DNA of 62,252 nucleotides, filler included, from Rhabdomonas costata (taxonomy: Eukaryota), in NCBI GenBank assembly GCA_019059605.1. It is 35 parts of 35 records of this genome, joined end to end, with 100 filler letters (N's around TTAATTAATTAA, not from the genome) between each part and the next. Parts side by side here need not be neighbours in the genome. Positions count along the whole stretch, not along the records: positions 35,654 to 37,334 come from JAHMHO010010751.1; 34 more parts are not named here. One strand, given 5' to 3'. A model generated the notes under the pieces. It was not told the DNA's origin and searched no databases. It saw nothing but the letters and a program-made list of their open reading frames with translations. The stretch's first letter is position 1. Each line of letters begins with the position of its first letter. This document shows positions 3,298 through 62,252 of this stretch, one piece after another. A program made the position numbers and the translations under genes.

Positions 3298-3605
3298 CGC
3301 GTACACAGCCTCCCATGTGAGTGTGGCGGTCCGTCAAGTTCCACTCCTCTGGGACCGCACACCGCACTGCCCACCTATGGCGACTCGTTTGACAACGGTG
3401 AGGGGTGAACCCGAAGCAGGCCCCTTTACTTTCTTTTCTTCTTCTTCCCAAAACAACCAACCACACCCACCACNNNNNNNNNNNNNNNNNNNNNNNNNNN
3501 NNNNNNNNNNNNNNNNNTTAATTAATTAANNNNNNNNNNNNNNNNNNNNNNNNNNNNNNNNNNNNNNNNNNNNGGTGTGATGAGACCAGTGAAGCTGCAG
3601 TCCAC

Positions 3606-5063
3606 CACCACAACCCCATCACGGCGGCGCACGTTGTACACCTGCGGAGAGTCCGCGTATGTGGACTGCAGCTTCACTGGTCTCATCACATCACGAAGGA
3701 CCAAATGCTCAAACCTGGACTTGCACTCTTCAGCTATGACGGCAAATGTGGCTAACCCTGCGGCTCAAACTTTCCCTTATAAAGACTGGGCAACATCTTG
3801 CCTTGAAATTGCACTGTTCATGGCTGAAATGTTCTCAGATTAAACCGCCAATTATGTTTCACTCTACCATCATATCATAATACTGCTTATGGTAATAATG
3901 TTGTTTATGTAAACGACTTTTTTCGTTACTAGATCTTGCGGGGTGCGCAGAAACACAACAGACTACCAGCACAAGGCATTGGTTTGGAGGTTTTTTTCTG
4001 TCTCCAGCGGGATTTCAAATCTCTCCCACTGCAGCTTCTCAGAGTACAAATCACCCCTCTGCTGCCACACACACAAGCACACATACGCACACACACAGGT
4101 GCGTATATGCACACCTGCCGCACTACCCAGTCGATCCGTGAGTGCCCCCTCTGGGCACACCCATAGTCTGGGAACGTAGAGAACCTGAGGGGCCCCACAC
4201 TCGCCCCCATTACCCAAGACTCCCTTCAACAGTTCACGACATTGAGGAAGAAGGTATCATAATTCTACTCACGAAAATCCAAAGAAAAACATTAAGAGAA
4301 GAAAAGACATAAAAGACAAGCCAAAGACATACATAGAAACAGCCGTGGTTAGGTGGTTTGGCTATTTTGGAGGGCACAAAGGCAATGAACAGATTTGTGA
4401 CTGAGGCAGCGCCTTAGCGAGAAAATAGGCTTTGGACAAAACCATCCAACGAAGGACCTCCCGTTTCCATTCCCTGAGCTGCGAGCGACACCAAAGGCTT
4501 CTGGAGCAGAGTTTATTGTCGTCATCCATAAATGCTCGTCGGCAGAAAGAATACTTTGTGAAGGTTCACGGAAGGATGAAGACACAAGGGCTCGTGGAAC
4601 TCCCCTCAGCACCTGAATTCATAGTGTGCGGAGATCAGCCGCTTCCAGGGGTCCACGAGGGGCTGACAGCCCTCCTGGCTGCTGGGCGCAGCACTGGAAA
4701 AACGTGAGTGAAATGGAAATGGCACGTCGACCTCACGACAGTCCACTGTTCACGACAGACAAAAAAGCAACGCACAGCCTCCACAGGCAGCGGTCCATAG
4801 TGTGATCAAGCGGTGCAGTATTTAAGCCAAGGGGAGAAGCACATAGGGACATATGGGTCACCGGAGCGGCTGGCAAATGTAGAGGGAGGGAGCGTGGAGG
4901 TGGATCAGTTGGGGAAAAGCTGCACCGCGAACCTCAAAGGTCCCAGAGGGTCACCCTTGGACACGTTGCACCGCACTTGGACTGTCTTCTCGGGGATGGC
5001 GGGCACATCGCTGCCGTTCTCCGGCCGCGCGCGCGCAGTCACCACCATCAACGGAGGATGAAC
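3606..5063 (-). CDS. Hypothetical protein, four exons (partial)
   Basis: Exons 5063-4933, 4693-4613, 4184-4115 and 3641 onward join via GT-AG introns in phase (...GDPLGPLSAAPSSQEGCQPLVDPWKRLISAHYEFRFSTFPDYGCAQRGHSRIDWVVRQVYNVRRRDG...). Confidence 0.6.
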
Positions 5064-6248
5064 CTGCACGGGCGAGAACGATCTGGCACTTAATTCGCAG
5101 AGCAGAAATAGCAAATTCTCTATCCGCTCTATTCTGTTTCAAGTCAAGGATACCCCCTTCCAATTCCACTCGGACCCCCCACCGCTCTACAATCGCAGCC
5201 ATAACTCCCACGGTCGAGCACACGCAAAACGCTAAGCTCCCAAAACAAAGTGACANNNNNNNNNNNNNNNNNNNNNNNNNNNNNNNNNNNNNNNNNNNNT
5301 TAATTAATTAANNNNNNNNNNNNNNNNNNNNNNNNNNNNNNNNNNNNNNNNNNNNTTGTTTTGGTCAGACCCGCTCTCCCTGGCGCTGTTTGCGAACATC
5401 ACTGTCTCCACGACGTTCCAGTTGGGTAACTTCAGTGCCCCCCCGATGAACTCCACCGAGCTCACCTCTATGATGAGCATCATCATGGACTCCAGTCGCC
5501 CCGCAACGGCACAAACGCACACACACACACACACGCCCACTTACTCACACGCTCACACGCTCACGCCCACCTGAGTTCCTGCTTTGCTGACTTGACCGCA
5601 CAAGGTATTTGACAATTTGGCTGTTTGCAGTGGGCCAAGCAACGTCAGTTTTTGCAAAGCGTGTCAGTTCTGTGAAGTGGGTTCACCAGTGGAGGAAAAC
5701 GGACGCAGGTCGGAGCCGTATTAAGAGTGAGTAACAATGTTTTGTGCAGTGCACAGGAAGTGGCGGACTTTCCCTTGGGGTTACTGTGTCCTCACTCATC
5801 CCTTGGAAAAGTAAGAAAGGTTAGGACAGCTTTGAAGCCCCGCCGGTCTGCAATGAGTAATTCGCAGTCATGGCCGGATCACCCAGACAACTTTACAACT
5901 GCGATCGTCGCTTTGCATGGACAACCAAACCTTTATCTTTCAGTGTGTGTGTGTGTGTGTGTGTGTCGCCAGAAAAAAGTCGTTCCGGCCAAGTGCACAA
6001 AGTGTGTGCATGTATACATGTAGCCTACTTATGAGCACACTCTGTATCAGTCCTGACCTGCACCTACTGCCCCCATGTTGCAATGGGGAAGACCATTTGA
6101 GGTGAATCCCAGAGTTGCCTACAGCCCCACACCTGATCCTTGATGAACACCAGCGTGTTAGAGCGTTATGTGGGTTTGAGCCGATTTCGATGCCTGACAG
6201 TGCCCGTACTAGTGTTTACCCTTCACACCCAGCGCATTGTGTGTTTGT

Positions 6249-6304
6249 GTGCGTGTGCGTTTGCGTGTGCGTGTGCGTGTGCGTGTGCGTGTGCGTGTGC
6301 GTGT
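6249..6304 (+). repeat. (GCGTGT)n microsatellite
   Basis: Direct reading. (GT)n also at ~5943-5966 and (CA)n at ~12628-12655. Confidence 0.9.
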
Positions 6305-7383
6305 ACGACTGAGAAAATGGGTGCGAGTGGATTCTGGTGGCTGACTGTACCCGTGCCGGTGTCTTACTCTACACCCAGATTCGATGACGTGTGTGAGAAG
6401 TCGCATATACATCTTGTTCTTACATCCGTTGACTGTCCTTCCATCGCGCTAATACTGCCCTTACAGCCACCCTGAACTTCCGAGGGGAGGGGGCCGCAGG
6501 TCGTAAGCACGGAGATTGTCGCGGCCGCGGCGGTTTCTGTTGACCGGTTCTCCGCGGCGTCGCCTGTTGCTCTGCAACGCACGGCGGACTCTCCTGCGAC
6601 CTTCGTGCTGAGCTTTGGCAACTGCACGGCCGCCATTGTTGCCACCGTCCCCCCGGCCACCGCCCTTTCCAATCAGCCAGCGCTGTCAAACCCCGGTGCG
6701 TGTTTGTGAGCTGTTTCTTCTGCCTGTGAGGCGAGGTTTTCCCTCTTTGGAACGCCCGTGTTGCACGGCTGCTGTCAATGTTCACGTTGTCCGTGCCAAA
6801 GAGCACAAATTGCAATTAGATCAAAGGAGAGCTGCCGCGGGGTCGAATGCACGCCGCTGTTCATGTGTCTGGAGTCTTTCGATGCGCGCACATCCACCTC
6901 ACCAACGATGCAATCTGGCCCCGCGTCCGTCGTACGTTCTTTGCCGCATCCGCACCAAATTCGCATTTGACTCCGCAAAGTGCAAGAAAGGCAGCAATGT
7001 GAGCTGGGGGTGAGTTGCCGCGGCTGCAACCCCCCACCNNNNNNNNNNNNNNNNNNNNNNNNNNNNNNNNNNNNNNNNNNNNTTAATTAATTAANNNNNN
7101 NNNNNNNNNNNNNNNNNNNNNNNNNNNNNNNNNNNNNNCGGAAAAAGAAGAAAAGGAGGAGGGCTGAAAGGGGAAGCCAGCGGACAAGGAGCGGCAAAAA
7201 GGAGCCAGCCGTGGTGGCCAGAAGCTCTTCAAGAGCTTCTCGAGGATGCGAGCACAGAAGGTTATTAAACCGCGGAAGGTTATTAAACCCATTAAACCGT
7301 GGTTCTAATACGCCAGTGAGGTTTGTAAAGGACTTCCGCAGAGTCCTCGGAGGCCTGAGCGTGCGCTGCCTGTGTGGGTGTTC

Positions 7384-7416
<33 letters not shown>

Positions 7417-7425
7417 GTGGCATAG

Positions 7426-8411
7426 GGTGCTGCGCTCATTGGGTACATGGTGCTGATGAAGTACGCCCTTGGAGGGCTCGTGGAGCTTCCCTTCTTTGGC
7501 GCGGTGGCGGCTGTGGTGATCATTGGGAAAAACCTGGGTAGATCACCCCATCTATTTTTTGTCAGCGGAAATCGTCAGCGTTTTGGAGAAGTTCGCTGTG
7601 AAACTGGGAGTACCGTGCGCTTGATTTTTTCGACAAGAGCGGTAGCCTTTTTTTTTTGGCATGTAATCCTCCGAGCTTCACGTGTGACCTGCACCTGTTC
7701 TCGCGTGTTTTGTGGAATAGTTCGCGCAGTGATTCAATCGTCACATCCACTTTCGTGCGTATGTCTGTTTTGGATCCGCGGTTGTCTGCATTGTTGGCGA
7801 GAGCTGTTTCCTCACAACGCATTTTCGGGGTGCAGGGATGACGCTGCGGCAGTGCACGCACGTGTGGCTGTCCTGCCTGGGCTCCGCAGTTTGTGCCGAC
7901 GTGGTGTTCGGACTAGGGTTCCCCATCCACGACACCTCCGTGGGGCCCCGGCTCGCTCTGGGGCTGATCCTGTGCCTGCTGTGCTTCCTGGGCATGCGCC
8001 TGACTCCTTGCGCATTTGATCTTGGTCCCGTTTGATGGACTGTTTTGACTGCCTTTATTGCGTATTTATTGGGGAAATTTCAGATACTCGTGACTGCTGC
8101 TGGCAGGGTCCAGAGAGAGAGAGTGTGTGTGTGTTTGTGCGCCTCAGCAGTCCACAGACTTTGGGCATGCTCGCCGGTCCCAACCACCCAGGGCAAATGG
8201 ACGGTTAGCGCGCCAAAGCAGCAGCGCGGTATCGACTCACGCTCATGCGCGTCAGCACCATCTCTGCTCGATAGGGTTCTTTGTGAAGGCTGTGCTGGCC
8301 AGGAAGTTCCTGCTGGCCCAGTTTGTGGTGTACCTGCTTGTGCCCGCAACCCGGCCCGTCACGGTCCCGCTGTTGGTGTACCCTTGGCGGGTTGTTCACG
8401 GCTTTTTCTGG
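7426..8411 (+). CDS. Multi-pass membrane protein, ALMT/FUSC-like (partial, three exons)
   Basis: Exons 7426-7537, 7836-7991 and 8275-8411; the second donor is GC (GCATGC). Hydrophobic product with FFGAVAAVVIIGKNLGMTLRQ, resembling the ALMT/FUSC 'avvv...G.tl' motif. Confidence 0.55.
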
Positions 8412-20645: not shown

Positions 20646-20981
20646 TCAGTCATGTCTGCCCTGGCTTTCTCTCCAAGCCCTGAACCGTCGCAACTCCTCC
20701 TTCCCGCGCGTATACGCCCAGACAAAAGTGCCGGCGTCATCCAGGTATCCGCCAATGGGAATGAAGTCAGGGATAAGGTCGAACGGGAGGACAAAATAAA
20801 GGACAGCAAAGATAAAAAGAAAAAGCGTCATTCGGTCCATCGTGTACTGGCCCTGAAAATGGCGCAGCACCATTTCAGCAGCGTCGCGAGCATCCGGAAG
20901 AGCTGAGGAGAATGCCTGGGGAACCGAGGAGCCCCGAAGGATGCCAAAGGCATACCCTATGATGCTCAGCAGAGATCCCAT
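20646..20981 (-). CDS. DUF1232 / YkvA-family membrane protein, intronless
   Basis: Complete 111-aa ORF with the hallmark AVLYFVLPFDLIPDFIPIGGYLDDA. Pyrimidine tract and AG lie 5 nt before the ATG. Confidence 0.88.
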   Translation of the reverse strand: MGSLLSIIGYAFGILRGSSVPQAFSSALPDARDAAEMVLRHFQGQYTMDRMTLFLFIFAVLYFVLPFDLIPDFIPIGGYLDDAGTFVWAYTRGKEELRRFRAWRESQGRHD

Positions 20982-21906
20982 GTTTGCTCAGGACGCAGAA
21001 CAGGAACCCGTAATAAGAGCGAAAAGCAATTAAAACGCAACGAAACCTAAACCCACAAAAGTGCACATTCCTCATAATGGGGTACCAAACGACATGTCAA
21101 CATGCCACATGCGGGTCATCACGAGTGGAGTCTCAAATCCCATCTCCATGAAATCAACACACTGGGACCACGTTCTCAGAACAATAAACTGCGCAAACGT
21201 GGGGGTGTGTGATAGGCTCTGGGAAGCATCCTTTTGTATATCCTTTTATCACCCGCGACAGCACCAATAAATTGATTTTCGCCCCTTCCTCCATCCCCGC
21301 CTTCCNNNNNNNNNNNNNNNNNNNNNNNNNNNNNNNNNNNNNNNNNNNNTTAATTAATTAANNNNNNNNNNNNNNNNNNNNNNNNNNNNNNNNNNNNNNN
21401 NNNNNGGTGGGGGGGTGTAGATTTTTGAACCGGTCTACCACGGTACCTGGATTGGAGGATGTGGAGAAAAGCAATTCAACTCGCAACCCTAACGACTGAG
21501 GCCTGAAAGGCTTTGAAAACCATTGTGGGGCAGCCCCTCCTTCATCCGGGCAAAGGACAGCTGACAGCTGCAGGCATCAGCAGGATCCACTCGCAAACGA
21601 GTGGTCACCATCGCCAATGTTAGCCCCGGTGAACGCCGCCACAGTCACCAAAGCAGCCAACAGTATACATACAGCAACATCAGAAGTACAAAGAACCACC
21701 CACCATTCTGAGTCATGCAAACAGTGTCGCCATCAGAAGTGCAGAGAGACAAAATTGCTGTCTTGACCGCTTTTGTGAGGCGGACGAAAAATTGGTTGAT
21801 GACGTTCCAGTCCAGTTGACGGACACTTGGCTTGGGGAAGGGGGTGTGCGACTTACAGGCCGCCAATGTTGCCTCCAAATCGTCTCTCACATGCCCGCAC
21901 GCACAC

Positions 21907-29402: not shown

Positions 29403-32400
29403 AGGGACCTGGCAGTGGATCAGCGGATCGATTTCTTTATAGTTTTACATAACTCGCAGGGTGGGAGTGAAGGGACCTGTCGAAAGATCTCACTGCGCAA
29501 GAGCCTGCGAGCTCTGACTCCCTTTAATGCCTCTCGCTGCAACACTGGATATTGGGGGCTGGAATACGCTGAAAAGTCCGCGGCACGTTCCACATCTCAT
29601 GGGATCGTTTTCCCATATAGTGAGTTAAATAACATGCTGTGGGGACGTCGTGCGACTGAGAACGATGCTTGGTTGATGTGCGACGCTATCGTAGGACGCA
29701 CCACGTGTGACTTTGCTACCCGCATGGTACCGTGCAACGCGGATCGCTGGCCACCCACGCTAGCGATGAAAACGGTGAGAATCTCTTGCGTCTACATAAC
29801 CGCTTCACATTTTCAGTCACACTCAAATAGCCGTCTCATTGGAATTCTGGGAACAGCCTCTGCATCGCCGTGTGTGGTACCTCTTTCCTTGCTGTTTCCC
29901 TTTGTCAAATCGGCACAAGAAAGTCTCTTGTACACGATCCAATAGACTTCATTCTGGAAGCACCGTCTGCTCTGCTCCTGGGTGTAGGTGCGTCCTGCCC
30001 GACTTTACATGACTTTTCTTCAGTGTGCTGCTGTGTCTTCTTTCTCTCCTCTCTTTCTCTCATCACTTCTTCCCTTTCATCCCTTTCCCCCTCTCGTTTT
30101 TCGGTTTCCCTTCACCCCACCCTTCGTTCGTCAGCGTGTGTTTCCACTTTCCAATTGTTTCAAGGATGGACACCCCCTGTGCCCCCACACACCCTAAACT
30201 CACCCAACACANNNNNNNNNNNNNNNNNNNNNNNNNNNNNNNNNNNNNNNNNNNNTTAATTAATTAANNNNNNNNNNNNNNNNNNNNNNNNNNNNNNNNN
30301 NNNNNNNNNNNGTTTTTTTTGTTTTTTGTATTAGTTCTTCTCGATATGTTAACTAACACGAGTGATGATAACGGATGACCTATGTTTCGTCAAAAGACAA
30401 GGAAGTCCTCAGTCGCAATTCCAGAGGCACTTACCTGCCCAACGCACCCCTCCGCGCACTGGTGGCGAACTAGCCTTCACCAGTAAAACAATTCTATCCC
30501 ATCCCATTGCTACTTCCCATCCGGTGCCTAGCAGCATGCAACATGCAACATGCAACATGCGGTATTGGCCGTCTGTGGTAGTCAGGAATTTTCAGCGGCG
30601 GATATGCGCAACGCCCCGAAACAGCTGTAATGCTTGCGCAAACGCAGAGACACCTTGGCAAGCACCCGGCCATAATTGTGAGAAACAAATTTTGGTATCT
30701 TGCTGTCTGCGGCCAAACCGGTAAAATTAAGGAGGAAAACAACCGCCATCCCCCAATTGGCGCGACACGCAGATGTGTTGAAAGGCGTGTGTTTGTTTTG
30801 GAACGATAATTGTCAAAACTTGCGAAAGTCTTACGTCATAAAACCCCCGAACCCAAAGATTCGAATCTCAGTGGAAGCAATCTTTTATTGCTTTAATGCT
30901 CTGATCAATAATGTAAAATTATACAATAGTCCGGGTTCGGACGGCACTTGTAGAAAGCCAGTATTGATCAAACCAATTGTCCCACGGTACGTATTGTACC
31001 CTTGAACCCAAAAATTCCAATGCGTTTTGCCGGTTGAAGATAAATTTTTTGGAATCCTTTCCCATTTCCAGAGCAAATCGCCGTAAAAGATGAGAATACG
31101 CGGTCTGCGTCGGCCGTGTCCAAACATATAAAAGCACGAATGGTTTCAGCGGCGTCTCTGTGCGGAGTCCCGCCGCTGCCAGGCGCCAAGCGCCACCCGT
31201 TACCTGTTACATCCACCTTTTCCACGCGTTTAGGGTCCTTCAATCCAAATGCCATTTAAAAAAACGGCGCACCAGGACACCGCGAACCATTGGTTCCCTT
31301 TGCTAGCACGGTACATGCCCACTGCTGTTCAGCTCCAGCCGCAATTACCTTCCGCAGAAAATCCGTAACAAACAAAAAGAGAAAGCGAGATCCGATTGCG
31401 CAGAGAAAAGCCTTCATGAAGAGAAGGTTACGCAGCATAGGATTCCAATCTGAAATATAGCGCATGAGGAAGAGGAATGGCGCAGGACTAGAGTGATAGC
31501 TATGCCGTTGAGTTGCCGGGCGCGCAAAGCTGAGCAACGAACGAATTGGACCCGAAGGTTTCACATAACTAGCCCAATATCCCGGGGAAAACAAGCCCTT
31601 GATGGACCGCGCTGTCGAAAAACGGCCTTTGGCGGGTTCTGGAAGCCTTCCGCTTCCAACGACGTTCCTGCCAGTCTCTTGCAAAGTGCCATTGGTTCCC
31701 TCTTCTTCGACAAGAAGCGGGGCTGGAAGAAAGGCTAAAGAACAACCCGCCGGGAGCGGAGCAGATGAGATGCAGCCCTTATTCAGTTCAAGTTAGCGCA
31801 AAGAAAATTTGAATCCAGGGCAAAAAAAACAAAGATATAGTTTTTTGTGGGCTAACTTTTTCACCTTTTCAAAGATTTCCCGTGTCCTTGTTGAAAACGC
31901 ATTAAACGTACCCGCGGGGAACCCTCCTAGGCGGTCTCAACATCTGCATCAAGTAGGACAGACAAAAAGAAACCTTCATATAACACCACAANNNNNNNNN
32001 NNNNNNNNNNNNNNNNNNNNNNNNNNNNNNNNNNNTTAATTAATTAANNNNNNNNNNNNNNNNNNNNNNNNNNNNNNNNNNNNNNNNNNNNGTGTTTTTG
32101 TGAAGACTGCACACCTGCGTGTCTGGTTGTACTCAGCAACAAACAGACACGCAGGTGTGCAGTCTTCACAAAAAAGCACAATGGCTGTTTCACGACAGTT
32201 ATGCACGATACACGAAATGTTTAGGCTCTCGAGGTGCACAACTATTCACCAATGTAACGAATTGAAGGCAGCACCGCGATTATGTTCAAGTCTGCACGAC
32301 GCAAGGCAAGGGCAGGGGCAGAGGTTATACAATGTGGGACGGAGTATATGGTCGTTTGCAATACCAGCAGCCATTGCAGATTTCGGTTGTGGGACATGAT

Positions 32401-32662
32401 CAGTTGATGTACTTTCGGTAAGAGTAAAAAGACAATAAACCGTTACTCAACCGAACTTTCGCCGTGCGCGTGCAAATGGAGCACGCGTACAACGTAAGCA
32501 CAATGTAACGAAAACGCGGCAACGGTCATCCATTGGTAATCGTCCGGCGTCGATTCTTTAGCACAGAGAACACTCTGCACGGTGAAAGATACCCACGATC
32601 CGAAAGTGCCGGGCAGAAGGGGGAGGGGAGAGGCAGAGGGAAGGGGTAGGGTGCGCGTCCAC

Positions 32663-35553: not shown

Positions 35554-35805
35554 NNNNNNNNNNNNNNNNNNNNNNNNNNNNNNNNNNNNNNNNNNNNTTA
35601 ATTAATTAANNNNNNNNNNNNNNNNNNNNNNNNNNNNNNNNNNNNNNNNNNNNGGGTGGGGTTAAAGGCAATCGCCTGCTGGGCACCAGGGCTATTGGCC
35701 ACACCCGTGCTCGTGGGAGGCACCTTCGAAGGGACGTTCCAAATGCGGTAACCTCATTGATGCCCAGTGCGGGGATATGGGTGAGATTCGACAGTGAAGG
35801 AACCT

Positions 35806-36591
35806 TGGGGCTTCGCTTGACTGTGCAGGTGGAGGTCTGCGTGCGCTGGGTGTGGAGCATCTCCCCTTCGCCCGCCGTGGCATCGCAGCTCCTGCCCTCG
35901 TGCCCGACCGAGCCACGGCTGCCGCTGCTGCTTTCACCACTGCTACCACTCCCACTGAGCGAATTTGGAGGGCAAGACCAGCCCATAGTACGCAAGGAGG
36001 GTACGAACCGTGGACACCACGGGGTAGCGGGAGCGAAGGAATGAATACAAAATGGAAAACAACGGGCATTGCCAAAAAAAAGCTTCGTTCACCATATTAC
36101 AATTTAATGGACTAAGTGGAAAGGCAATACAACAAGATTTCTGCGGTATTGCGGATTTTTCGAAGAAAAAAATCCAGGCGGTGTCCCAGATCATGGGTCC
36201 TAAACCCCTCCCGGGGAGCAACGCGGTTCACCTCCTTGCCATCAGAGGACAACGCAACCCTGATGCCCACCATCTAATTCATATGTGGTTCAAAACCTCG
36301 ATGGTCTATGTTGGATGGAATCAAGTCATTATAGACCAATGCTTGACCTCCAAATCCGCTACCACTGCCGCTACCGCTACTACTACTGCTGCTGGCTGCG
36401 GAGCCCCCGGCAGTGGCCGCGGCACGGTGAGTGTTGAACTCCACCGTGGCACTGTTCTCGGGGTGTTCCAGGTCCACAATGTGGGCCTGCGACAGCCCTG
36501 CGGAGAAGGCCTTCTCCAGTGTGTCCTCCACCTCTGCTGGGTAGGGCTTCCACTCTGAGCTGGACTGCTCTAGCCACATCCACCGCACCAG
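35806..36591 (-). CDS. WWE-domain protein (partial, two exons)
   Basis: Exon from 36591: VRWMWLEQSSSEWKPYPAEVEDTLEKAF…ATVEFN. Downstream exon (~35956-35806) supplies GEMLHTQRTQTSTCTVKR, matching the WWE C-terminal 'M.Q.....tg..r.VkR'. A Ser/Gly-rich linker lies between. Confidence 0.7.
35957..36360 (-). other. Candidate non-conventional stem-loop intron
   Basis: Ends pair as RNA (AGCGGAUUUGGAGGUCAAG / CUUGCCCUCCAAAUUCGCU, extending ~13 more pairs). Removal restores the WWE frame. No plausible GT-AG pair near the junctions does so. Confidence 0.65.
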
Positions 36592-38225
36592 CTGTGGACC
36601 ACCACCCAAACGCACGCGTAATGCAGGACTTCGAATAAAAATAGTCAGTGCTACATTAAAAGTGAGTTTGAGATGTTCTCTAAAGGAGGCGTTTTTTTAC
36701 ATTGGCGATAGTTACTAGGGGAAGTCTGCTGTGGAATTTCTATTGAAATGTTGAATTTTAACTGCTTGGCTCGTGGAAAAAGGCATCTTCGCAAACGGCG
36801 ACCATAAAAGACGACATAGTGGCACAGCTTTCTCTTATACCACTCTTTGTTTAGCAACTTTTCAGCCCAACACTAAAACGACCTTAATGAGTGTCATTGC
36901 ATCTCGACTTTCGTGGTCCGTTTTTGCAGAAGTATCGTTTCAGCTGTATCTCTTAATTAGGACATGACCCGCGCCATGTGATGCCGACTACGCAGAAAGG
37001 TCGGCTGCAAAAACCATTCCCTGTTGTTGTTGATCGATGTGATGTTTTCCTTTTCGTACCAGGGCCTTTGTCTTCCGTCTTTTGTGTACTCCGGCCCCGC
37101 CTCCCTCCGTGTAAACTTCAACATTGCAAGAAAAAAATGCTGGCAATAACCTGCTTGCTAATGCTGCTGGGCTCTGGCGGACGGACTGGAGAGGCATTTG
37201 TTCATAAAAGAAAAAACCGCAGCCGATCCGGGACTGTGGCGGACGGCTGACGCGGCGTAGCCTCAAGTAGGAGGAACCAAATACCACAACAAATGCCACT
37301 CGCACCAAGAATCCGACCCAAATGCCCAAAAACANNNNNNNNNNNNNNNNNNNNNNNNNNNNNNNNNNNNNNNNNNNNTTAATTAATTAANNNNNNNNNN
37401 NNNNNNNNNNNNNNNNNNNNNNNNNNNNNNNNNNTGTTGGGGGGTGTGCATCTATATGTGCTTGTGCAGGCGTATGTGTCTGGGAGCGCTCCTCGTTTCT
37501 TTTTCTTTTGATTTGCTGGAAGCTGCTTGATGACTGTCTCGCGGGGGAGGGGGGTCGATCCGACAATTCTGGCTTACGCTCGGCTGCCATGCTTGGTATG
37601 TGGAAAAGTATTACCAGCAGCGATCCTCAAGATTTGCGAAGTCAAGCCTCCTCCAGAGTGGTTATTGCGGATGCTTTTTTAGGCTTTTGGCACATGTGGT
37701 CCCCGAACCTTTTAGATGGTGCCCTTGCCTCTTGTGGTTCAAAGACTGAGCAAAGGGGAAGGAGGGGTTCCTTTTCCAGTAATTTTATTAGACTGTTTTG
37801 AATGGGGTTTCAGGGTGTTTTTTGAGGGAATTGATGATTGAGGTTGAGCTTTGCAGGGATGTGACACGTTGATTAATATTGAAGGTTTTCACGGTGGTCC
37901 GAGGTTTTTTTAAACGAGCCAACAACGTATTCCTCCGTCTCCCATAACCCCCCCCCCCTCCACACACACACACTCCCAGACATGCTAACTTTTCTTAATC
38001 AACCCCTATGATTTAACACGGGCTCACCCAAAAAAGAAATGAGAAATCTGAACCGTTTGCATCTGTCTCCGTCTCTGGTATAGTGAGTTTGCAGCGGTGC
38101 ACATGTGTGCGCCGTGTTCTTTTTCACTTTCGTGAAGTGAAGAGGAGGATGTAACAACGGCACGAAAGAAGCTGCCCCCTCGCTCACTTATGTCTCTCAC
38201 ACTCATGTATTCTGGCGATGCTCAG

Positions 38226-41338: not shown

Positions 41339-42463
41339 ATGGAGAAGTTTGGCTATGAACGGATCAAGGTGATCGGGAAGGGCGCCTTCGGGTCCGCGGT
41401 TCTGGTGCGGTGCCGGAAGGATGGGCGGAAGTATGTCGCTAAGGAGATCAACATGACCCTGATGAAGAAGGAGGAGCGCGACGAGGCCATGCACGAGATC
41501 AAGGTGCTTTCCAAGCTGTGCCACCCCAACATCATCCGCTACATGACCCACTTCGAGGCCGGGGGGATGCTCTACATCGTCACGGAGTACGCTGACGGAG
41601 GTTCGCGTGGCCCCCATCCACGCCCCTGCACAACGTGACAAACGGCGCCATCGGAAGAGTTTTGGTGGTTTTGCTGAATGTCGTGCAGTCCCATTTGCAA
41701 GACCATCAACTTTTGATAGGAATGAAGTGTTAGTTTTGGCGTTGGACATGGCTGAACTTTTTCCTTAGCCCTTGCCTTGCACTGTTTCTTTCCCTTATCT
41801 GTGTTCTGGTTTCTCAGGGGATTTGGATACGAAGATCAAGAACCAGCGCGGAGTTCGCTTTCCGGAGCCCACCATTTTGCACTATTTTGTCCAGGTGGGC
41901 CTCTGCAGACATTACTGTCTTTCAGAACATCGTGCTCTGAACGAGACATGCGGTGTAGCTTGGCGGGACACAATCGTTGTGTAATCGTGAGGGTGCGCTG
42001 GAGATTCCGGTTGTCCGGCATAGTCTCCTCGGAAGTGGTGCTGTCCTGTGCAATTGGTGGCTAGGAGTGAGAAAGAGCAAAATTGCTGTGTAGATTCGCT
42101 GACGACACGTATGAGACGGAATACACGTGATTCGTAGGTCGGCTGCGACAATTTGATTCGGGGCTCTGCTTGGAAGCGTCCATGTGGCGCAAGGGGGTCA
42201 CGTCATGACGCAAGCAGTCGCAACCCATGCTTTGCGTGTCCGTCCGTGAGGGTGGGAGTGCATTGCGGAAGCTGTTGAACTAGTGCCGTTGTGTTCTTCT
42301 TATGAGTGGGCAATATTTCCCCTTCTCCCTGCGACCCTGAAAGTGGTCATGGGGCTTCCACAGGTTTGCATGGCCCTAAAGCACCTCCACGACAAGAAGA
42401 TTCTCCACCGTGACCTGAAAGGGCAGAACGTTTTCCTGACCTCAAACAACATGGTGAAGCTAG
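41339..42463 (+). CDS. NIMA-related (NEK1/3/5-like) Ser/Thr kinase, first three exons
   Basis: Exons 41339-41600, 41818-41894 and 42364-42463 are GT-AG and in phase. Motifs [56 protein letters not shown]. Confidence 0.95.
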
Positions 42464-44362
42464 GTACAGGCTCCCGCCACCCCTCCCTCCCTGATGCTCA
42501 CCCGTTTTAGACGTAGATGTACAGTGTCTTGTCGTTCTCTGTTCTGGGTTTCTTGTTTGACTTCCTTCCTCCGCACCAGATCCCCACATTCGCCTGTTTG
42601 CTTTCTTCACAGGTTCCATCCCTGCGACTGGTTCCACCCGACCCTTTGCATTACCCAAATGCCATATTCTGCGTNNNNNNNNNNNNNNNNNNNNNNNNNN
42701 NNNNNNNNNNNNNNNNNNTTAATTAATTAANNNNNNNNNNNNNNNNNNNNNNNNNNNNNNNNNNNNNNNNNNNNTTTGTTTTCATCTCGCTTTGTGTCGT
42801 TAAAGGCACACCGATTTTGCCGCCAGTATATCGTGATACATCCTTTGTTGTGTCTCTAGGTCGAAGGCAGTGCAGTGTGTAGTGTACACTCCGGTTGTGG
42901 GGGATGCCCCTGTCGCGCGAGAACCGCCCTGCTGTGCCGATGAGCAGGTCGCTTGTGGTGGTCACTTTGTCTTTCTTCTTTTTCCGGAACGCTGCGTGGA
43001 AACATTCTTTTAATGTGGTTGGTGTGTTTGGTTGAACCCGAAGTTGGCCTGACACAGAACGGGCATCCCTGCCCGAGCGCTTCCCTCGCTTCAACGGTAT
43101 GCAGCGTCGGAGCTGGGAATTTCACTTTTCACCCTTTTCATGATGCCTATTGAGCAGAAGCCGCTGACCTCACCTATGCCTTTGCTTAACAGTTTACTTT
43201 GGGGTGGATGATTCAGGTGGAAGATGCGGCTAGTCCCGACCCCAGTGCCGGTGAGAATATGGTCCGCGGGGAGGAAGCCGAGGAGGATGCGCAAGGTGCC
43301 ACCCCCTGCCTCTGCCTTTCTCGGTGTTTCCCTCGCCTCAGAATTTCTGCGAGAGTCAGGTATGCTCCGCAGACCTATCCTCCGCAGACCCCCCCTTGCT
43401 GCACACAGATTTGCACTGGTCGCAATTCTCTGCTCGGGATTGGGCATCAAAAGCTGAATACATTCTGTGGTTTTATGCTAATCGTTTCCAAACCGACACG
43501 ACGCTTGCTCGTACGAACCCATTGCTTTGTTTTTGTTACGATCAACTCCGCTCTGTGGCGCAATTTATGTCTATATCCGTTTGGATGCGCCTGTTGAGAA
43601 GTCTTGTGTGACCTTATTGCGGTGGGTCGCCGTTTGCAGGGCAGTGCCGAGAAGCTTGTGAGATATCGGCCTACCCCACCACCGGCGGGGTGTGCCGCCA
43701 GGTTGTGGCCCGATACAGGCCCTGGGCTTTCTGCTATCCTTGAAATGGCAATGCCTTGTGAAATTGACCTGCTCCGGGACCTCATGTTCCCTATTTTCCT
43801 ATTGACTTGCTCTGAAGTAGATTTGTATGATATCTACCGGACCAAGGAATTACCGGCAGTGGAACACCTGTGTGTGGGGCGGCGTATACAAAAAATCCAA
43901 AGTCCCCGAATGCGCAAAGCGAAACTTTCGATGCTGTTTAATTCCAGCAATTTGAATCGAGTTCGTGGTCGATCGGTCTCTTTTTCTTCTTCGAACATTC
44001 GGCGTATGTTCTGTGCACTGCTTCTTTTCAGTGGGCGTACTACGGGCGGTGCACCCGTAGGCGGTGCAGGGATCCTCACCCCGACATCCCCACGGCCGCT
44101 CGCAAGGCGCTGTACCAGAGCGCCATCCGGGCGCGTCGAAAGGCATGCGCCTTAACATCCCATCGCCCCTTTCCACTCGCCACATCTTTCCGTCAATGAA
44201 TTCGATGGGACGCATCTCACTGCCAAAGCCTCAAACCCGTTCTATACAAATCTCCATCACCCACACCGCCCACGATGCATGCCTCACATCTCTTTCCGAT
44301 TTACTGGTGCCTCGCGGTTTTTCTGTCGCATGGTGACCAATAGACAGTGAGCAAATTGTTGC

Positions 44363-46334: not shown

Positions 46335-46859
46335 GGGGGTGGTGGTCAATTTTTCGATCCACTCCGTGAACACGCCATCGGAGTTGTTAGCTGTGAGGAC
46401 GGGAACCGCGGCGTAGGTCATGGTGAGGGGGCAACCCGTTCCTTGCTCAAGCTGGTAGTGCAGGTAGCTCAGCGCTGCACGGGAAACTTGTTGACCAGGT
46501 CGTTTCCAAGCGAAAGAGGGAACCTCGTTTGCGATCGCTACTTCCATAAGCTTATGGTAGCTGTCGACAAAGGTCGCACCGTTGATGCGGCGGCCCTGGC
46601 AGTCGAACGGGGTGAAAACTGGACCGGAGTCATTGGCCAGACGAGCGTGCTCCAGCCAGCCCGCGTTGCCGACGATCTCGCCGTACTTGGAAAGATGAGA
46701 AAAAACATCTGATGAAGGAGACTCGTAATGCTGAACGCACTCATGAAGGCGGCGGTTGGCAGTGAAGGCATTGAAGCCCTCCATGAGAGGAACCTGGTTA
46801 ATCACTTCATGAGTCTCACGGTGAAATGCCTGCAGCAGGGGTCGCAGAGAGCGCATCAT
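46335..46859 (-). CDS. aidB: AidB-like acyl-CoA dehydrogenase, N-terminal part, intronless over 525 nt
   Basis: Motifs THEVINQVP, FDCQGRRI…F..SYHKLM and RAALSYLHYQLEQGTGCPLTMTYAAVPVL match the AidB family. N-terminus MMRSLRPLLQAFHR is Arg-rich and non-acidic. Confidence 0.85.
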
Positions 46860-46885
46860 TCTCTGACCAAAGGCTGTAGACCCTT

Positions 46886-46910
46886 CTGGGAACAAAAATG
46901 AAATGTAGAA
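46886..46910 (-). promoter_or_regulatory. Pyrimidine tract + CAG 26 nt before the AidB start codon (candidate trans-splice acceptor)
   Basis: TTCTACATTTCATTTTTGTTCCCAG immediately upstream of a short 5'UTR. Confidence 0.5.
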
Positions 46911-47782
46911 TCGAATGTGAAAACCATAAACACGGAGAAAAATGAGACGGATGTTAACGCTGCTAGTAGAGAACAGCGTTACAACTTGAATCCGCCATAT
47001 TATGCCTGCAACAGCAATGTCAATTTATTATCGCTTTGCGCGCTGAGCGTACCGCAAGAAAACCGTGGCAAGAAAGAACAAAACTGCCCTCGTGGAGGAT
47101 TCACGGCGTAGAAGGAAATCAAATGAATTTACAGCTTCGACCTTTTGGCGATAGGGTATGCAGGGATGTTAGCTTTTGACATTCTCCACTTATTTGTTTC
47201 CTGCTCACACGCTTTTAAGGACTGTGAGCAGAACAACAAACCAAACCCAATTAATTTCCGTTACGAAAAAAGGTTTAAAGCATCGTTCAGATAAACGATA
47301 AGCAAACGTTTATAGTTCACCTTCAGTGAAACGCAAATCCTCCAAATATCAGATTAGTAAAGTGTGATGATCAAGCTCGAAGTTAAGTTCACAAGGTAAG
47401 GTGGAGTACCCAAAGCCCACTCTGACCCACAAACCCCAGACCCCAGAGGAATCAAAAATCGGAGACGGAGGCGAGGCGCAGTTTGCAGAGGATGCGCGGA
47501 ATTCCACGAGTGAAATCCAGCCTACAACCATCCCGTTCGTGCCTGAAAGTCTCCGCAGCACTCCGTTAAGACCCAATGAAAGGCGAAGAGTGGAGAGCTC
47601 CTGAAAGGTAGGTGAATGTTGGCAAAAGAGGGAGTTTGCTAAAACAGAGCACCAAAACCAAGATACCTCTGTTCGCGGAAGCAAGAGGACAAAGCACAAA
47701 CTCTCAGTAGGAGAGGCTTACTAAGCCTCAAGTCCGCAAACAAGGTAAGGAAGGGAGTAAAGTGAGCAAACACTAGCCAGGC

Positions 47783-55592: not shown

Positions 55593-56906
55593 CTGATCGC
55601 ATACACAGCGGGCCTGGAGCCCTGGAACGGGAAGGAAGCACAGGCCGTGCCCCGAGCAGGCCAGAGAGGCATTCGTGGTGGCACACCGCAGGGTGCACAG
55701 CGGCCCCACGGCGTTTACGGAACAGCTCTGGCAGGCCGTAGCCCTGAGAATAATCAGCGTGACGCAACCGAACAGAAGCGCGAATAGACCCACAACACCT
55801 CATGGAAGTACAGCATGCCGACAGAACCTACTGTCATCAGAGCGACTAAATCCGTTCCCTGCAGAAGGAAATACACATTTCTTCTGGCCACTCCCTCTCA
55901 CCTTGATTTCGGATAAGTATCCCGCACACCACGATTGTTGAGGTTCGGATCGCGTAAAAGCAAAAAACTAACATGGATGATTGGAGTAGTGGAGAAGGGA
56001 TGGGGGTGTGCATACGAGTCCCAGTACCCATTCACGGGGTCGCTGTAGCACGTGCACCGCCCGGTGAAAGAGTTGCATTGTCCGTGGCCGTGGCAAGGCT
56101 TCGCCGCGCCCCCTTCGCAAGGCAGGCTGCAGTCGAGGCCGGCCCAACCGCTGAGGCATCCGCAGGTTCCATTGCTGCACAACAAATGGACAAGCGGGAC
56201 AATTCCGAAGCCTCTGCGGGTCGAAAAGGAACCCGATGGCAGGTGTACCTTCAGCGAGCAATGCCCAATGCGCATGATGCAAGATCACCAAAATACCTAT
56301 TCCAAGCACAAAAAAAGGGTCTGGGTCTTTAAGTGGTCGGAAAACCCGAATCCCGAACACTCACCACAACCTTGGAGACAACGTCAAAGAGGGCAAACGA
56401 GTTCTGAGCGAGTAAGTCAACCACTCGTCCAGATGCTTGAGCAGCACGAAAGATGAGAAAACGACTTTGTGTGAAAGGGCTCTGTGGCGGGCGACCTCTG
56501 GAGCTACGAGTAAGGAGAGACGGCGACTCAAAGACCACTCATTATTATACACCCCGAAGCCCCTTAAACCTCCAAGCCAACCACCCAGTAGTAAGACATG
56601 CTTGGCACATACCCAGAGACTCCCCCGGAGTAGCTCGAGGCGTGGCCCGAGCACACCACCACCGTAGTTACTCCCTCGGCGGACACCAAGGAGGTGTACC
56701 CTGGCACAGTGGAGCTACAGTTGGTCCCGAAGAGGCCCACGCTGCAGTCCTCACAGACCGCCCCAATCCACCCCGAGGCACATACGCAGCGGGCACCCCC
56801 CACACCCGCCGTGCACACGCCATGGCCAGAGCAACTGACGTTAGCACCAGCAGAGGATGAGCCCAGCAGGCATGTCTGGTCACAGGCTGGACCAACGTAG
56901 CCGCTT
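55593..56906 (-). CDS. EGF/laminin-EGF repeat surface protein (partial, three exons)
   Basis: Exons 56906-56613, 56174-56016 and 55743-55593 are GT-AG and in phase. Repeated CSGHGxC…CxCxxGWxGxxC. Confidence 0.88.
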
Positions 56907-58300
56907 CTGAAAATNNNNNNNNNNNNNNNNNNNNNNNNNNNNNNNNNNNNNNNNNNNNTTAATTAATTAANNNNNNNNNNNNNNNNNNNNNNNNNNNNNN
57001 NNNNNNNNNNNNNNTTGCTCGATTTTTGGTCTTTGCTTCTTTTGTAATCAAGGTGCAGGCTGCTGCTGGTTTTTTCAGCAAAAAAACTATTTTGTTAGTA
57101 ATGATTTGTGATCCGGTCTGTTTTTTTGGGGAGTGGGGGCGTTAAACGGTATAGCACCATTATACGGTCATAGGGCGGTATATGAAAAAACGATTTTTGG
57201 CCATTCCGTTGTCTTTCACGTTGGTCAGTATTGGTGGAAGGAACTCATTCCTTGCTGGGAAAAGGGATTCGATTAGTTTAGGGGCGGAAGCCAGCCGCGG
57301 CGCGGCCGTAGCGGGCGGGGACGTTCCCTTGGGGGTATATTTCAATTTGTGACGATACAGCTCAAACCGAAGCATGTACACTAATGTATAGGTGGGCAGG
57401 GGTCCCGGGAGTTTGGTCCCTCGTCGTATGACACCATTTAACGTGATACCGTCTTTGATGAACCGCAGATGGGGTTCAAAAGTGCCACGTCTGGTCTGCA
57501 CGCCAACTTATTAAATGGCGGTAGCAGCATGTTCTGACCTGTGCTGTGGATGTGTGAACTGCAGTACTGTACAGGTACTTCTCCGAAAACCCGGGAAAAT
57601 AGTAAGTCCAACAAATATTGTCCGCGTCTCGTCCAAAACGTCACAACCGAAAAAAGTGCAGTCTATATCATCATTTTCCGACCCAGAAAGAGACTGTGAA
57701 AAAGCTGGTTTTTACCTGGAGGTGCTTTTGCTTATTGTTGTTTCCACCCCCACTTCTTGCTTTTGAGACGTCGCGGGCCAAATGAACCATGGTTAAAAAA
57801 TCCTGTGAGGGCGTCTGCAGAAGCAGAGTGCAGGAAGCTTAGTACTTGCAAACAAAACACAGAAAACAAGGGGAACGTTTGAAAATTGGTGTGCAGAAGA
57901 GAATTTCATGTGTGGGGCAGGAATAATTGCGTAATTTGGGGACTGACAAGTGGGCTTGGTAGGATGAGCAATGTGAGAATCAGGGTGGGAGGAGAGGAAA
58001 GTAGTGGAGAAAGGGGGTGAAAAGGGAGTGATACGGTTGGTGTTGCAAAAAGAAAAGAAACTGCGGGGAAATTTTCATTTAAAAATGGCCGACATTGCAG
58101 GAATGAAAATGTGCGACAAAACCAGCGAATGTCCACCTGACATAAAAGTGGGTGAGGGTAAGTTGAGCCCAGAACTTCACCCGGCTGGAGTGAGGGGGCG
58201 ATGAGGTCCCCGAGAGAGGAGGAAAGAACTCAGCCTGAGATCGGGTTGAGAAATGGCTCACACCAATTTCTGTGTGATAGGGGATGTGGGGTGTTGGAAG

Positions 58301-59915: not shown

Positions 59916-62252
59916 CTTCACCCACAGCGTAGAGCACCCTGCGCAACAGGTGCGCTCAACATGAAAAACACGTTTTCATGTTTGAAAATGTCGAAGGCTG
60001 TATCTTCCCGCGCACGCGTCCACAGAAACACATTCACCCTCACCCTTACAACAGCCCTTGAACAGGGTGGAGTTGACCTGTTCCAGTATCTACCACTCGG
60101 GTATGTTTTCTTCCTCTTGTGAAGGACCAGGAAACAGAAGCCGACCCTACTAGTGCGCTGTAATATTCCTGTTCTGAAGATGTTCCTGCTTGGCTGCTTT
60201 GGAGAGGGCATATGTACATCATGCCCAAGCACCGTCACAAATAAGAACGTCCCATCTCGCCTCATCTATTGTTTTCCTTTCCCGGAACGCCCCAAAGCGG
60301 TCAATAATCAATCACGACAACGTGTCTCATTGTTCTTGCAGATACGCTCTCTTTTGCTCAACCGTCGCAGCCGCGCTACGTGGTCCCTTGTGTCCAAAAA
60401 GTGAGAGGATGAATGGAAAAAATAACTAAAAACACCACCAAAACGGAGCCAAAAACGCAGCTATGCTTCAAAANNNNNNNNNNNNNNNNNNNNNNNNNNN
60501 NNNNNNNNNNNNNNNNNTTAATTAATTAANNNNNNNNNNNNNNNNNNNNNNNNNNNNNNNNNNNNNNNNNNNNGTTTTGTGTGCATTTCTTCAGGGCTTT
60601 CTAGACTTCAACAGTGGCGTGCCCAAGAAAGCCCCAGCAAGCGAACTGCCCAGCAAAACACAGGCAAGACTAAGAGCAAACAGCACTGGCACTGTAGAAG
60701 TCTAGAAAGCCCTGAAGAAATGCACACAGGAGGCCAAAATTGTCACCTTCGAAGGCAGCGGAAAAATCCGGGACACATCAAAGGGAAGAGCCACAGCAAG
60801 TCACATTGAGGAAGCCCTTCCCTTCCCCGACCCTTCCCATACCGCTGCCTTCTGACCCCCCACTGCGACGGTAGAGAAAAAGGCCTTCGAAAGTGGACGG
60901 AAACCCGCGGGGATTAGTGCAGGAGCAGGAGGGAGGAAGGAGGCTAGGAGACAGATTTCAACATGCGGAACAGAAAATGTCGTCCTCGGAGTCCGCTGTG
61001 TGCGGTTTTCTCCAGCAATGTGGGGTGCCAGGAAAATCCCGCCCAGCCGCGACACAGGCACGACATCCGCACATCTTCCAAAGCACACTCAGAAGAGTGG
61101 CAACCAAAAATGATCTCGCGCCCATCCTAGCCACATCAAAGCAGTCTAAAAGACCCCGAAAACACCCCACCTACCACACCCACACACCCACATACACGCA
61201 CACAGGCCTTCGCAAACTCTGGCCCGGCTGCGGGTGGCCAGACCAACCCAACTCCGAGCAGCCCTTCCCTTCCCTTCCCACGCCTTCCCCAAATATTGTT
61301 ATGGGAACTTGCTGGCTGGTGTTGAGGGAACACCTCACAACGCAACGGCTCTGAAGCAACAAAAGACAAGGTGACGGGCCATCCTCCTTATCCCGAACCG
61401 CCGCAGCACTCCTCGGGCGTACAAGTGCGTGCGGCGCAGCGCGTCGGGCTGGTGAGGATCCGTGGGCCGTTCGGGCAGAGAATACCCCGGCAAGAATATT
61501 CTGAGTGAGTGAAAAAAGGTAGAAAAGACACAAAACGCGTAGGAAGAAACAGAGAAAACGGTGGACGGAGAAGGTGCCACAAAACGTGCCGGCAGCGCAC
61601 CCGAGTGGCTGCAGAGAGCTGAGCGCAACAGCGGCACGCCACTCAGGAGGTCAGATAGTGTCTCTGCACAGGTGCTTTCAGGGAGAGTTGGGAGGTGCGG
61701 GTTGACTATTGGGGTAGTGAGAGAGTGGATCAAGGGTTGACGGAGAGGTTTTTTTTTTTTTGGAAAAAGACCATGTGGGTGCTGTCGTGAGCCCTCCGCT
61801 GTGTGGAGTAAGAACGGTTCCAAAAAGGATCATCACAACCGGGAGGGGACTCAGGAAATCCTGACCCCCAAAACCGGTCTCGCGGCGTTTCGGGAGGCCT
61901 GGCTGGATTTACAAAAGACCCCAGGCCGGCTTCGGCTTTGCCCTCAAGCGACGACAATGCCACTTTATTCCTCCCGCCTCCACCTCCGACCCGGACCAAC
62001 TTCCCACATCCATGGTTGATGCCTATCAACGTCGTCCTCAGCTGAGGTGGAAAATTTGTACAGAGACGTCCTTCAGGTCATTCATAACTTGGTGGTACCA
62101 CACGCATCGCATGAATCTTGCTGTGTTGCCCCACTCTTTCTGTGGTGGTTGCCCATCAGCCTCGGCCAGTCATCCCATCCTTCCGCCTCCCATTCCAACA
62201 TTCCCTCCTTACAAAACCGAGCCCACTATTATCATCGGGTCCACCCACAACC

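Follow-up and report, generated by a model that had tools for sequence, protein, structure and literature searches.

A 407-nt insert in a WWE-protein gene of Rhabdomonas costata is, with a probability that we put at roughly 0.55, a euglenozoan nonconventional intron of a known kind, removed through the pairing of its ends and possibly descended from a small inverted-repeat element. It had been annotated initially as a euglenid-type intron that splits and, on removal, restores a WWE domain. The paired ends, the absence of GT-AG, the CGG/UCG pairing and the Ser/Gly frame all support the first part of that description, but the completion of the WWE domain is not supported by profile tests. The features on which the argument rests are listed below in order along the coding strand.

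36362..36618, minus strand: exon 1, encoding the N-terminal two thirds of the WWE domain and then an Ala/Ser/Gly run; its 3' part is certain, its 5' limit uncertain
36362..36367, minus strand: direct repeat CAGTGG, left copy, one base upstream of the 5' arm
35955..36361, minus strand: candidate nonconventional intron of 407 nt, placed by the published spacer rule, in frame, GC 0.477
36327..36360, minus strand: 5' arm of the terminal stem, from position-by-position pairing and RNAduplex
36356..36358, minus strand: CGG at intron positions +4..+6 (the CDG element), from the sequence and the code given in PMC12501133
35960..35962, minus strand: UCG at intron positions -8..-6, a variant (the published code has C first) that pairs with the CGG
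35958..35990, minus strand: 3' arm of the terminal stem, from pairing and RNAduplex; its outer 19 nt were also found as an inverted repeat
35952..35957, minus strand: direct repeat CAGTGG, right copy, directly past the 3' arm
35807..35954, minus strand: predicted exon 2, opening with a Ser/Gly run and continuing for about 35 more codons, from the codon model and GC

Sequence context and coding content of the window

The window, by which we mean the whole 62,252-nt stretch of DNA analysed, is made of 35 contigs of 1679-1694 bp each, chained by N44-TTAATTAATTAA-N44 linkers (e.g. 35554-35653), and adjacent "genes" in it are therefore not genomic neighbours. The insert lies in the contig at 35654-37334, which limits its true context to 1681 bp. 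Average GC over these 35 short contigs is about 0.49. Rfam matches across the window numbered zero, and 10 of 257 ORFs of at least 85 codons, on 5 contigs, had a Pfam match at E<=0.001, so that recognisable genes are confined to few contigs. An acyl-CoA dehydrogenase-like ORF (46335-47024, minus strand) covers the AidB N-terminal domain in full (Pfam E 4e-43) and runs off its contig end, and an ORF at 20649-20987 (minus strand) matches DUF1232 (E 2.6e-11). Long microsatellite tracts of (CA)n/(GT)n and (CT)n/(AG)n lie at 5515-5966, 6260-6307, 7384-7400 and 8112-8123, and produce many spurious long-range 'stems' in inverted-repeat scans. For frame assignment we used a codon model trained on 8 exons elsewhere in the window (from two kinases, the AidB-like dehydrogenase and EGF repeats), which in leave-one-out trials chose the correct frame for 9 of 9 exons.

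Two same-frame exons flank a non-coding insert

Exon 1, with a GC of 0.63-0.68, scored +16.6 bits in its own frame versus -56.1 and -41.4 in the other two. On the far side of the insert, 35956-35807 scored +8.2 bits in the Ser/Gly frame versus -31.2 for Val/Ala and -21.7 for the remaining frame, and the GC3 of exon 2 is likewise higher in the Ser/Gly than in the Val/Ala frame (0.78 vs 0.55). The insert itself scored negatively in all three frames, and GC falls from 0.675 in the exon 1 tail to 0.477 in the insert, then rises to 0.682 in exon 2; for comparison, five introns elsewhere in the window lie at 0.49-0.54. Codon model, GC and frames therefore point to two exons of the same frame around a non-coding insert whose length is 2 modulo 3. 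Translated products lacking 401, 407 or 410 nt are in frame and open to the contig end, and by the same arithmetic the removal of ~404 nt keeps the Ser/Gly frame, as the initial annotation had held. Exon 2 probably ends at AAG|GT, with the GT at 35806-35805; over the 153 nt past this point (35807|35806) the frame is lost and the codon model gives -15.0. The WWE gene probably has further introns. Exon 1 may have its acceptor at 36618-36630 (minus strand), where a T-rich tract runs up to AAG| at about 36629.

An (AGY GGY)n coding repeat lies on both sides of the insert (repeat families D1 and D2). The CAGTGG direct repeat is ambiguous as a target-site duplication because this coding repeat forms both flanks.

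The ends of the insert form a long stem rich in wobble pairs

On the coding strand, arms 36360-36327 and 35958-35990 (minus strand) align over 33 positions. Of these, 24 are Watson-Crick and 7 are G-U, the other 2 being mismatched (U36346xC35972 and A36329xC35988), and C36341 is bulged. This recount agrees with the '31 pairs over 33 nt, 7 G-U' given initially, and the sequence itself is as it was then described. RNAduplex kept 29 pairs between the coding-strand arms at -39.1 kcal/mol, as against 17 pairs at -24.1 kcal/mol for the antisense arms, and in a 421-nt fold (35950-36370) the whole terminal stem formed on the coding strand but only its outer part on the antisense strand. The expectation that the coding strand would fold better is thus borne out for the arms and the terminal stem, but not for the molecule as a whole, for which the folding z-score was no better on the coding strand (-2.32 vs -3.69 antisense). 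The outer 19 nt of the arm, allowing up to 3 mismatches, occur twice in the window, as the arm and its inverted partner, versus 0.01 occurrences expected from 100 shuffles.

The stem contains 8 transition-type imperfections, 7 of which are G-U pairs on the coding strand and 1 an A x C mismatch. The one-sided binomial probability of this bias is 0.035, or about 0.07 once the earlier reader's choice of strand is allowed for. Within the inner 11 pairs there are 6 Watson-Crick and 5 G-U pairs, with zero A x C. A G-U bias on the coding strand is the pattern that selection on RNA, not DNA, would give.

The same arms could belong to an insertion that is not spliced at all, i.e. a MITE-like or foldback inverted-repeat element sitting in a Ser/Gly-coding exon and kept in the RNA, in which case a stop at 36276-36274 would cut the gene short 29 codons into the insert, or the gene would be a pseudogene. 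Such an element would account for the 19-nt terminal inverted repeat, in which 17 positions match, the 6-nt direct repeat at the borders, and the shortness of the insert (about 404 nt) and its GC below that of the flanks; indeed, elements of this sort have been proposed in the literature as the source of nonconventional introns (PMC3935182, PMC11282704). Decay of a DNA repeat should, however, yield G-U and A x C equally, and the inner pairs hold only the former. Exon 2 still scores as coding in the frame that in-frame removal restores, and the direct repeat may be just part of the flanking coding repeat. Searching the 62-kb window turned up no second copy of the element, which is weak evidence in a window this small. 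We consider an unspliced insertion unlikely.

Borders of the candidate intron and their fit to the splicing code

Knock-in genetics has yielded a code for nonconventional introns of the form 5'-N3-CDG ... CH'G-N5-6 followed by a purine, with CGG-CCG and CGG-CTG variants functional and pairing past the motif required (PMC12501133). In an earlier survey, positions +5,+6 were paired with -8,-7 in 55 of 55 introns, and usually +4 with -6, while CAG/CTG was found in 33 of the 55 (Milanowski 2016, PMC4770533). Applied to the insert, a 3-nt spacer places the 5' border at 36362|36361 and a 5-nt spacer places the 3' border at 35955|35954. In this 36361-35955 register C36358 pairs with G35960, G36357 with C35961 and G36356 with U35962, and 26 more pairs follow inward. 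The 5-nt spacer gives the in-frame removal of 407 nt, whereas a 6-nt spacer is out of frame. Sliding the borders of the 407-nt junction one base either way leaves the mRNA identical, and the three equivalent border pairs so obtained are GT..CA, TA..AG and AG..GT. As GT-AG occurs at none of these equivalent positions, we rejected the 'intermediate' intron that had been offered initially as an alternative.

Compared with the published Euglena code, the candidate has the N3-CGG, but it carries TCG as the 3' element, and exon 2 begins with T in the 5-nt register. A slide of one base gives a border in keeping with the pyrimidine|purine rule (PMC3935182), but the motif is then one base off. This departure from the full code does not exclude membership of the class because the full code was found in 61.2% of nonconventional introns (PMC12501133). 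We infer that the insert is spliced from the RNA and at which exact border; the fit of its end pairing to the code is directly observed, as are the stem, the strand bias and the flanking frames.

In the mechanism that we envisage, the host would be the transcript of a WWE-protein gene, interrupted in a Ser/Gly-rich stretch past WWE profile position 51. The ends of the intron would form a stem of about 31 pairs in the pre-mRNA, bringing the exon 1/intron border (about 36362|36361) beside the intron/exon 2 border (about 35955|35954), and removal would be carried out by a machinery recognising 3 nt plus CDG paired with CH'G plus 5-6 nt, instead of GT-AG. The element from which the intron arose may be a small inverted-repeat transposon, in line with published hypotheses.

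The WWE match ends within exon 1

Exon 1 matches Pfam WWE (PF02825) with an E value of 4.3e-06 and 27.4 bits (cut-off 21.1) over profile positions 2-51 of 67, the match running to query residue 64. Exon 2 has no Pfam match in either the Ser/Gly or the Val/Ala frame. A search of protein representatives returned 7 weak WWE relatives (best E 1.5e-06), from 6 of which we built our own WWE profile of 16 WWE copies, excluding P0003, which carries a different repeat, and dropping stretches below 5 bits. Seven sequences were scored against it, namely the read-through, exon 1 by itself, and joins both in frame (three) and out of frame (two). In all seven the match stopped at position 50 of 73, at 43.6-46.3 bits, so that no spliced product gained over another when scored in the way the initial annotation had proposed. 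A C-terminal WWE sub-profile run on 2093 six-frame peptides of the window ranked the exon-2 ORF 1481st of 1852 matches, aligning just the last four residues of the motif, and hhalign aligned the same 4 residues (E 0.53). The spacing from Met to Val-Lys-Arg matches that of the relatives by eye, a resemblance and not a test, and in the joined product about 60 low-complexity residues would separate the two putative parts of the domain. These tests do not support a role of exon 2 in 'completing' the WWE domain, positions 52-67 having been found in it by neither Pfam, our own profile, the sub-profile nor hhalign. Searches for homologous proteins with exon 1, covering longer and near relatives, gave no relative bridging the junction, and a metagenome scan matched 591 patterns, with 0 relatives among them.

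Possible conventional splice sites around the insert

With its many pyrimidines and its terminal CAG, the 3' arm could plausibly contain a spliceosomal acceptor. Enumeration of 363 GT/GC-AG and AT-AC combinations identified one GT donor (36439) in phase with the AG at 35956-35955. The initial annotation had stated that the nearby GT donors and AG acceptors are out of phase, which is correct, but had not listed this more distant donor. Two donors need to be weighed.

36346..36347, minus strand: first rival donor GT, G|GTCAAG; with AG 35956-35955 gives a 393-nt intron and the Val/Ala frame
36438..36439, minus strand: second rival donor GT, GGA|GTTCAA; with AG 35956-35955 gives a 485-nt intron and keeps the Ser/Gly frame

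Use of the first donor would make the insert a conventional 393-nt GT-AG intron, from 36347 to CAG| at 35955, after which the protein would continue in the Val/Ala frame. Both sites are good, with G at donor position -1, an open Val/Ala frame continues over about 87 codons, and the other introns read in the window are GT-AG. Against this, the codon model puts Val/Ala at -31.2 bits versus +8.2 for Ser/Gly, with a GC3 of 0.55 versus 0.78, a single DNA repeat would have to be read as Ser/Gly upstream and as Val/Ala downstream, and the Val/Ala frame is without a Pfam match. We therefore judge this reading very improbable.

The second donor would instead give a conventional 485-nt GT-AG intron, from 36439 to CAG| at 35955, that takes in the Ala/Ser/Gly tail of exon 1 and renders the stem incidental. 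This intron is in frame and open, has a pyrimidine-rich run ahead of the acceptor CAG and a GTTC donor of the type used in the NEK-like kinase gene of the window, and the tail that it would absorb (36364-36438) scores only -4.5 bits in frame under the codon model. However, its donor has A at -1, in contrast to the G of all 7 donors read in the window; the WWE match extends beyond 36439 and would be cut; the GC of the tail (0.675) exceeds that of all five measured introns (0.49-0.54); and both the stem and its G-U bias would be left unexplained. We regard the 485-nt intron as improbable and retain the nonconventional intron as our preferred reading.

Other introns and inverted repeats in the window

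Five other complete introns were read in the window, and all of them can be drawn as GT-AG. In the NEK-like protein kinase gene (41339-42463, plus strand, ATG at 41339), two GT-AG introns span 41601-41818 and 41895-42363, and a third GT donor follows at 42464. A second protein-kinase fragment (33130-32663, minus strand) is interrupted by a GT-AG intron at 32966-32737, with another GT donor at 32662. EGF/teneurin-like cysteine repeats at 55593-56914 (minus strand) are encoded in three exons with two introns, the second of which reads either as GT-AG (56027-55745) or as a non-GT-AG intron that begins about 6 nt further downstream and is flanked by a GGG repeat, both being in frame. These GT-AG introns do not argue against a euglenid host because in some euglenids introns are reported to be mostly conventional, with a handful of nonconventional candidates (PMC8219788); they fit euglenids, but equally many other eukaryotes.

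Scanning the window with the published code gave 167 matches in a loose form, versus a mean of 149 in 20 shuffles, and 10 in a strict form with a 12-pair stem, versus 1.7 expected from 25 shuffles. Six of the 10 strict matches are three near-perfect contig-start palindromes, each counted on both strands, and the window is therefore no independent sign of a genome rich in nonconventional introns. The candidate itself was not caught by the scan because its 3' element is TCG. The three palindromes are inverted repeats of 30, 36 and 39 nt at 3576-3690, 32095-32174 and 60578-60728, begin 2-4 bases from the contig start, and have stems that each enclose a CAG/CTG pair. Probably they arose during assembly or amplification, or mark places where contigs broke at a repeated foldback element. 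An artefact of this kind was also considered for the insert and rejected, its repeat being internal, imperfect and G-U-biased, unlike those at the contig starts.

A more specific account would see here a young nonconventional intron close to its origin, in which an inverted-repeat element with a 6-nt target-site duplication entered the Ser/Gly repeat of the WWE gene in a lineage whose introns are otherwise GT-AG, as they are in the window, subsequently drifted in a manner that preserves RNA pairing (7 G-U vs 1 A x C), and works with a UCG that falls outside the code. This scenario strikes us as rather unlikely, but if true it would give direct single-locus support both for a transposon origin and for selection on an RNA stem.

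Comparison with known splicing systems

Nonconventional introns have been described as a class since the 1990s. We consider the candidate to be a further, probably ordinary, example of this known class, and if it is spliced it would add one more case to a well-documented series and change little alone. Its novelty is low because nonconventional introns make up 71.8% of the introns of Euglena agilis and a genetic analysis of their code appeared in 2025 (Nomura et al., PMC12501133). Three of its properties would nonetheless have modest value beyond the count: the UCG 3' element, which forms a G-U pair, falls narrowly outside the knock-in code and so offers a natural test of it; wobble pairs in the long stem are clearly biased towards the coding strand; and the combination of inverted repeat and flanking direct repeat fits the proposed transposon origin.

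The closest match is to the nonconventional introns of euglenids, reported from Euglena gracilis, E. agilis and others (Milanowski 2014/2016; Gao 2024; Nomura 2025). Like the candidate, these have no GT-AG at any equivalent border, and their paired ends join the borders; positions +4..+6 pair with -8..-6, and CGG is one of several 5' elements for which splicing has been demonstrated. In both, the intron is 'slidable' owing to direct repeats at its borders, such short repeats being present in 84.4% of E. agilis introns (PMC12501133) and described as target-site-duplication-like for nonconventional introns (PMC11282704), which are also reported to be released as circular RNA (J Mol Biol 2021, cited in PMC11282704). 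The length of the candidate falls within the published range, and its gene probably also carries conventional introns, as genes with euglenid nonconventional introns do. It differs in its 3' element, UCG, whose U forms a G-U pair and replaces the C of the genetically defined code, and in having T as the first base of exon 2 in the 5-nt register, where a purine is preferred. Its stem of 31 pairs is far longer than the few pairs treated as required for euglenid introns.

MITE-derived introns, or introners (Mobile DNA 2024, PMC11282704), are a second point of comparison. Unlike these, the candidate has 0 other copies in 62 kb and its direct repeat is ambiguous, but it shares with them terminal inverted repeats, a target-site-duplication-like repeat, small size and a position within coding sequence. 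Finally, the introns reported from the hemistasiid diplonemids Artemidia and Namystynia (RNA 2025, PMC12621601) resemble the candidate both in being without GT-AG and in the extensive pairing that draws their ends together.
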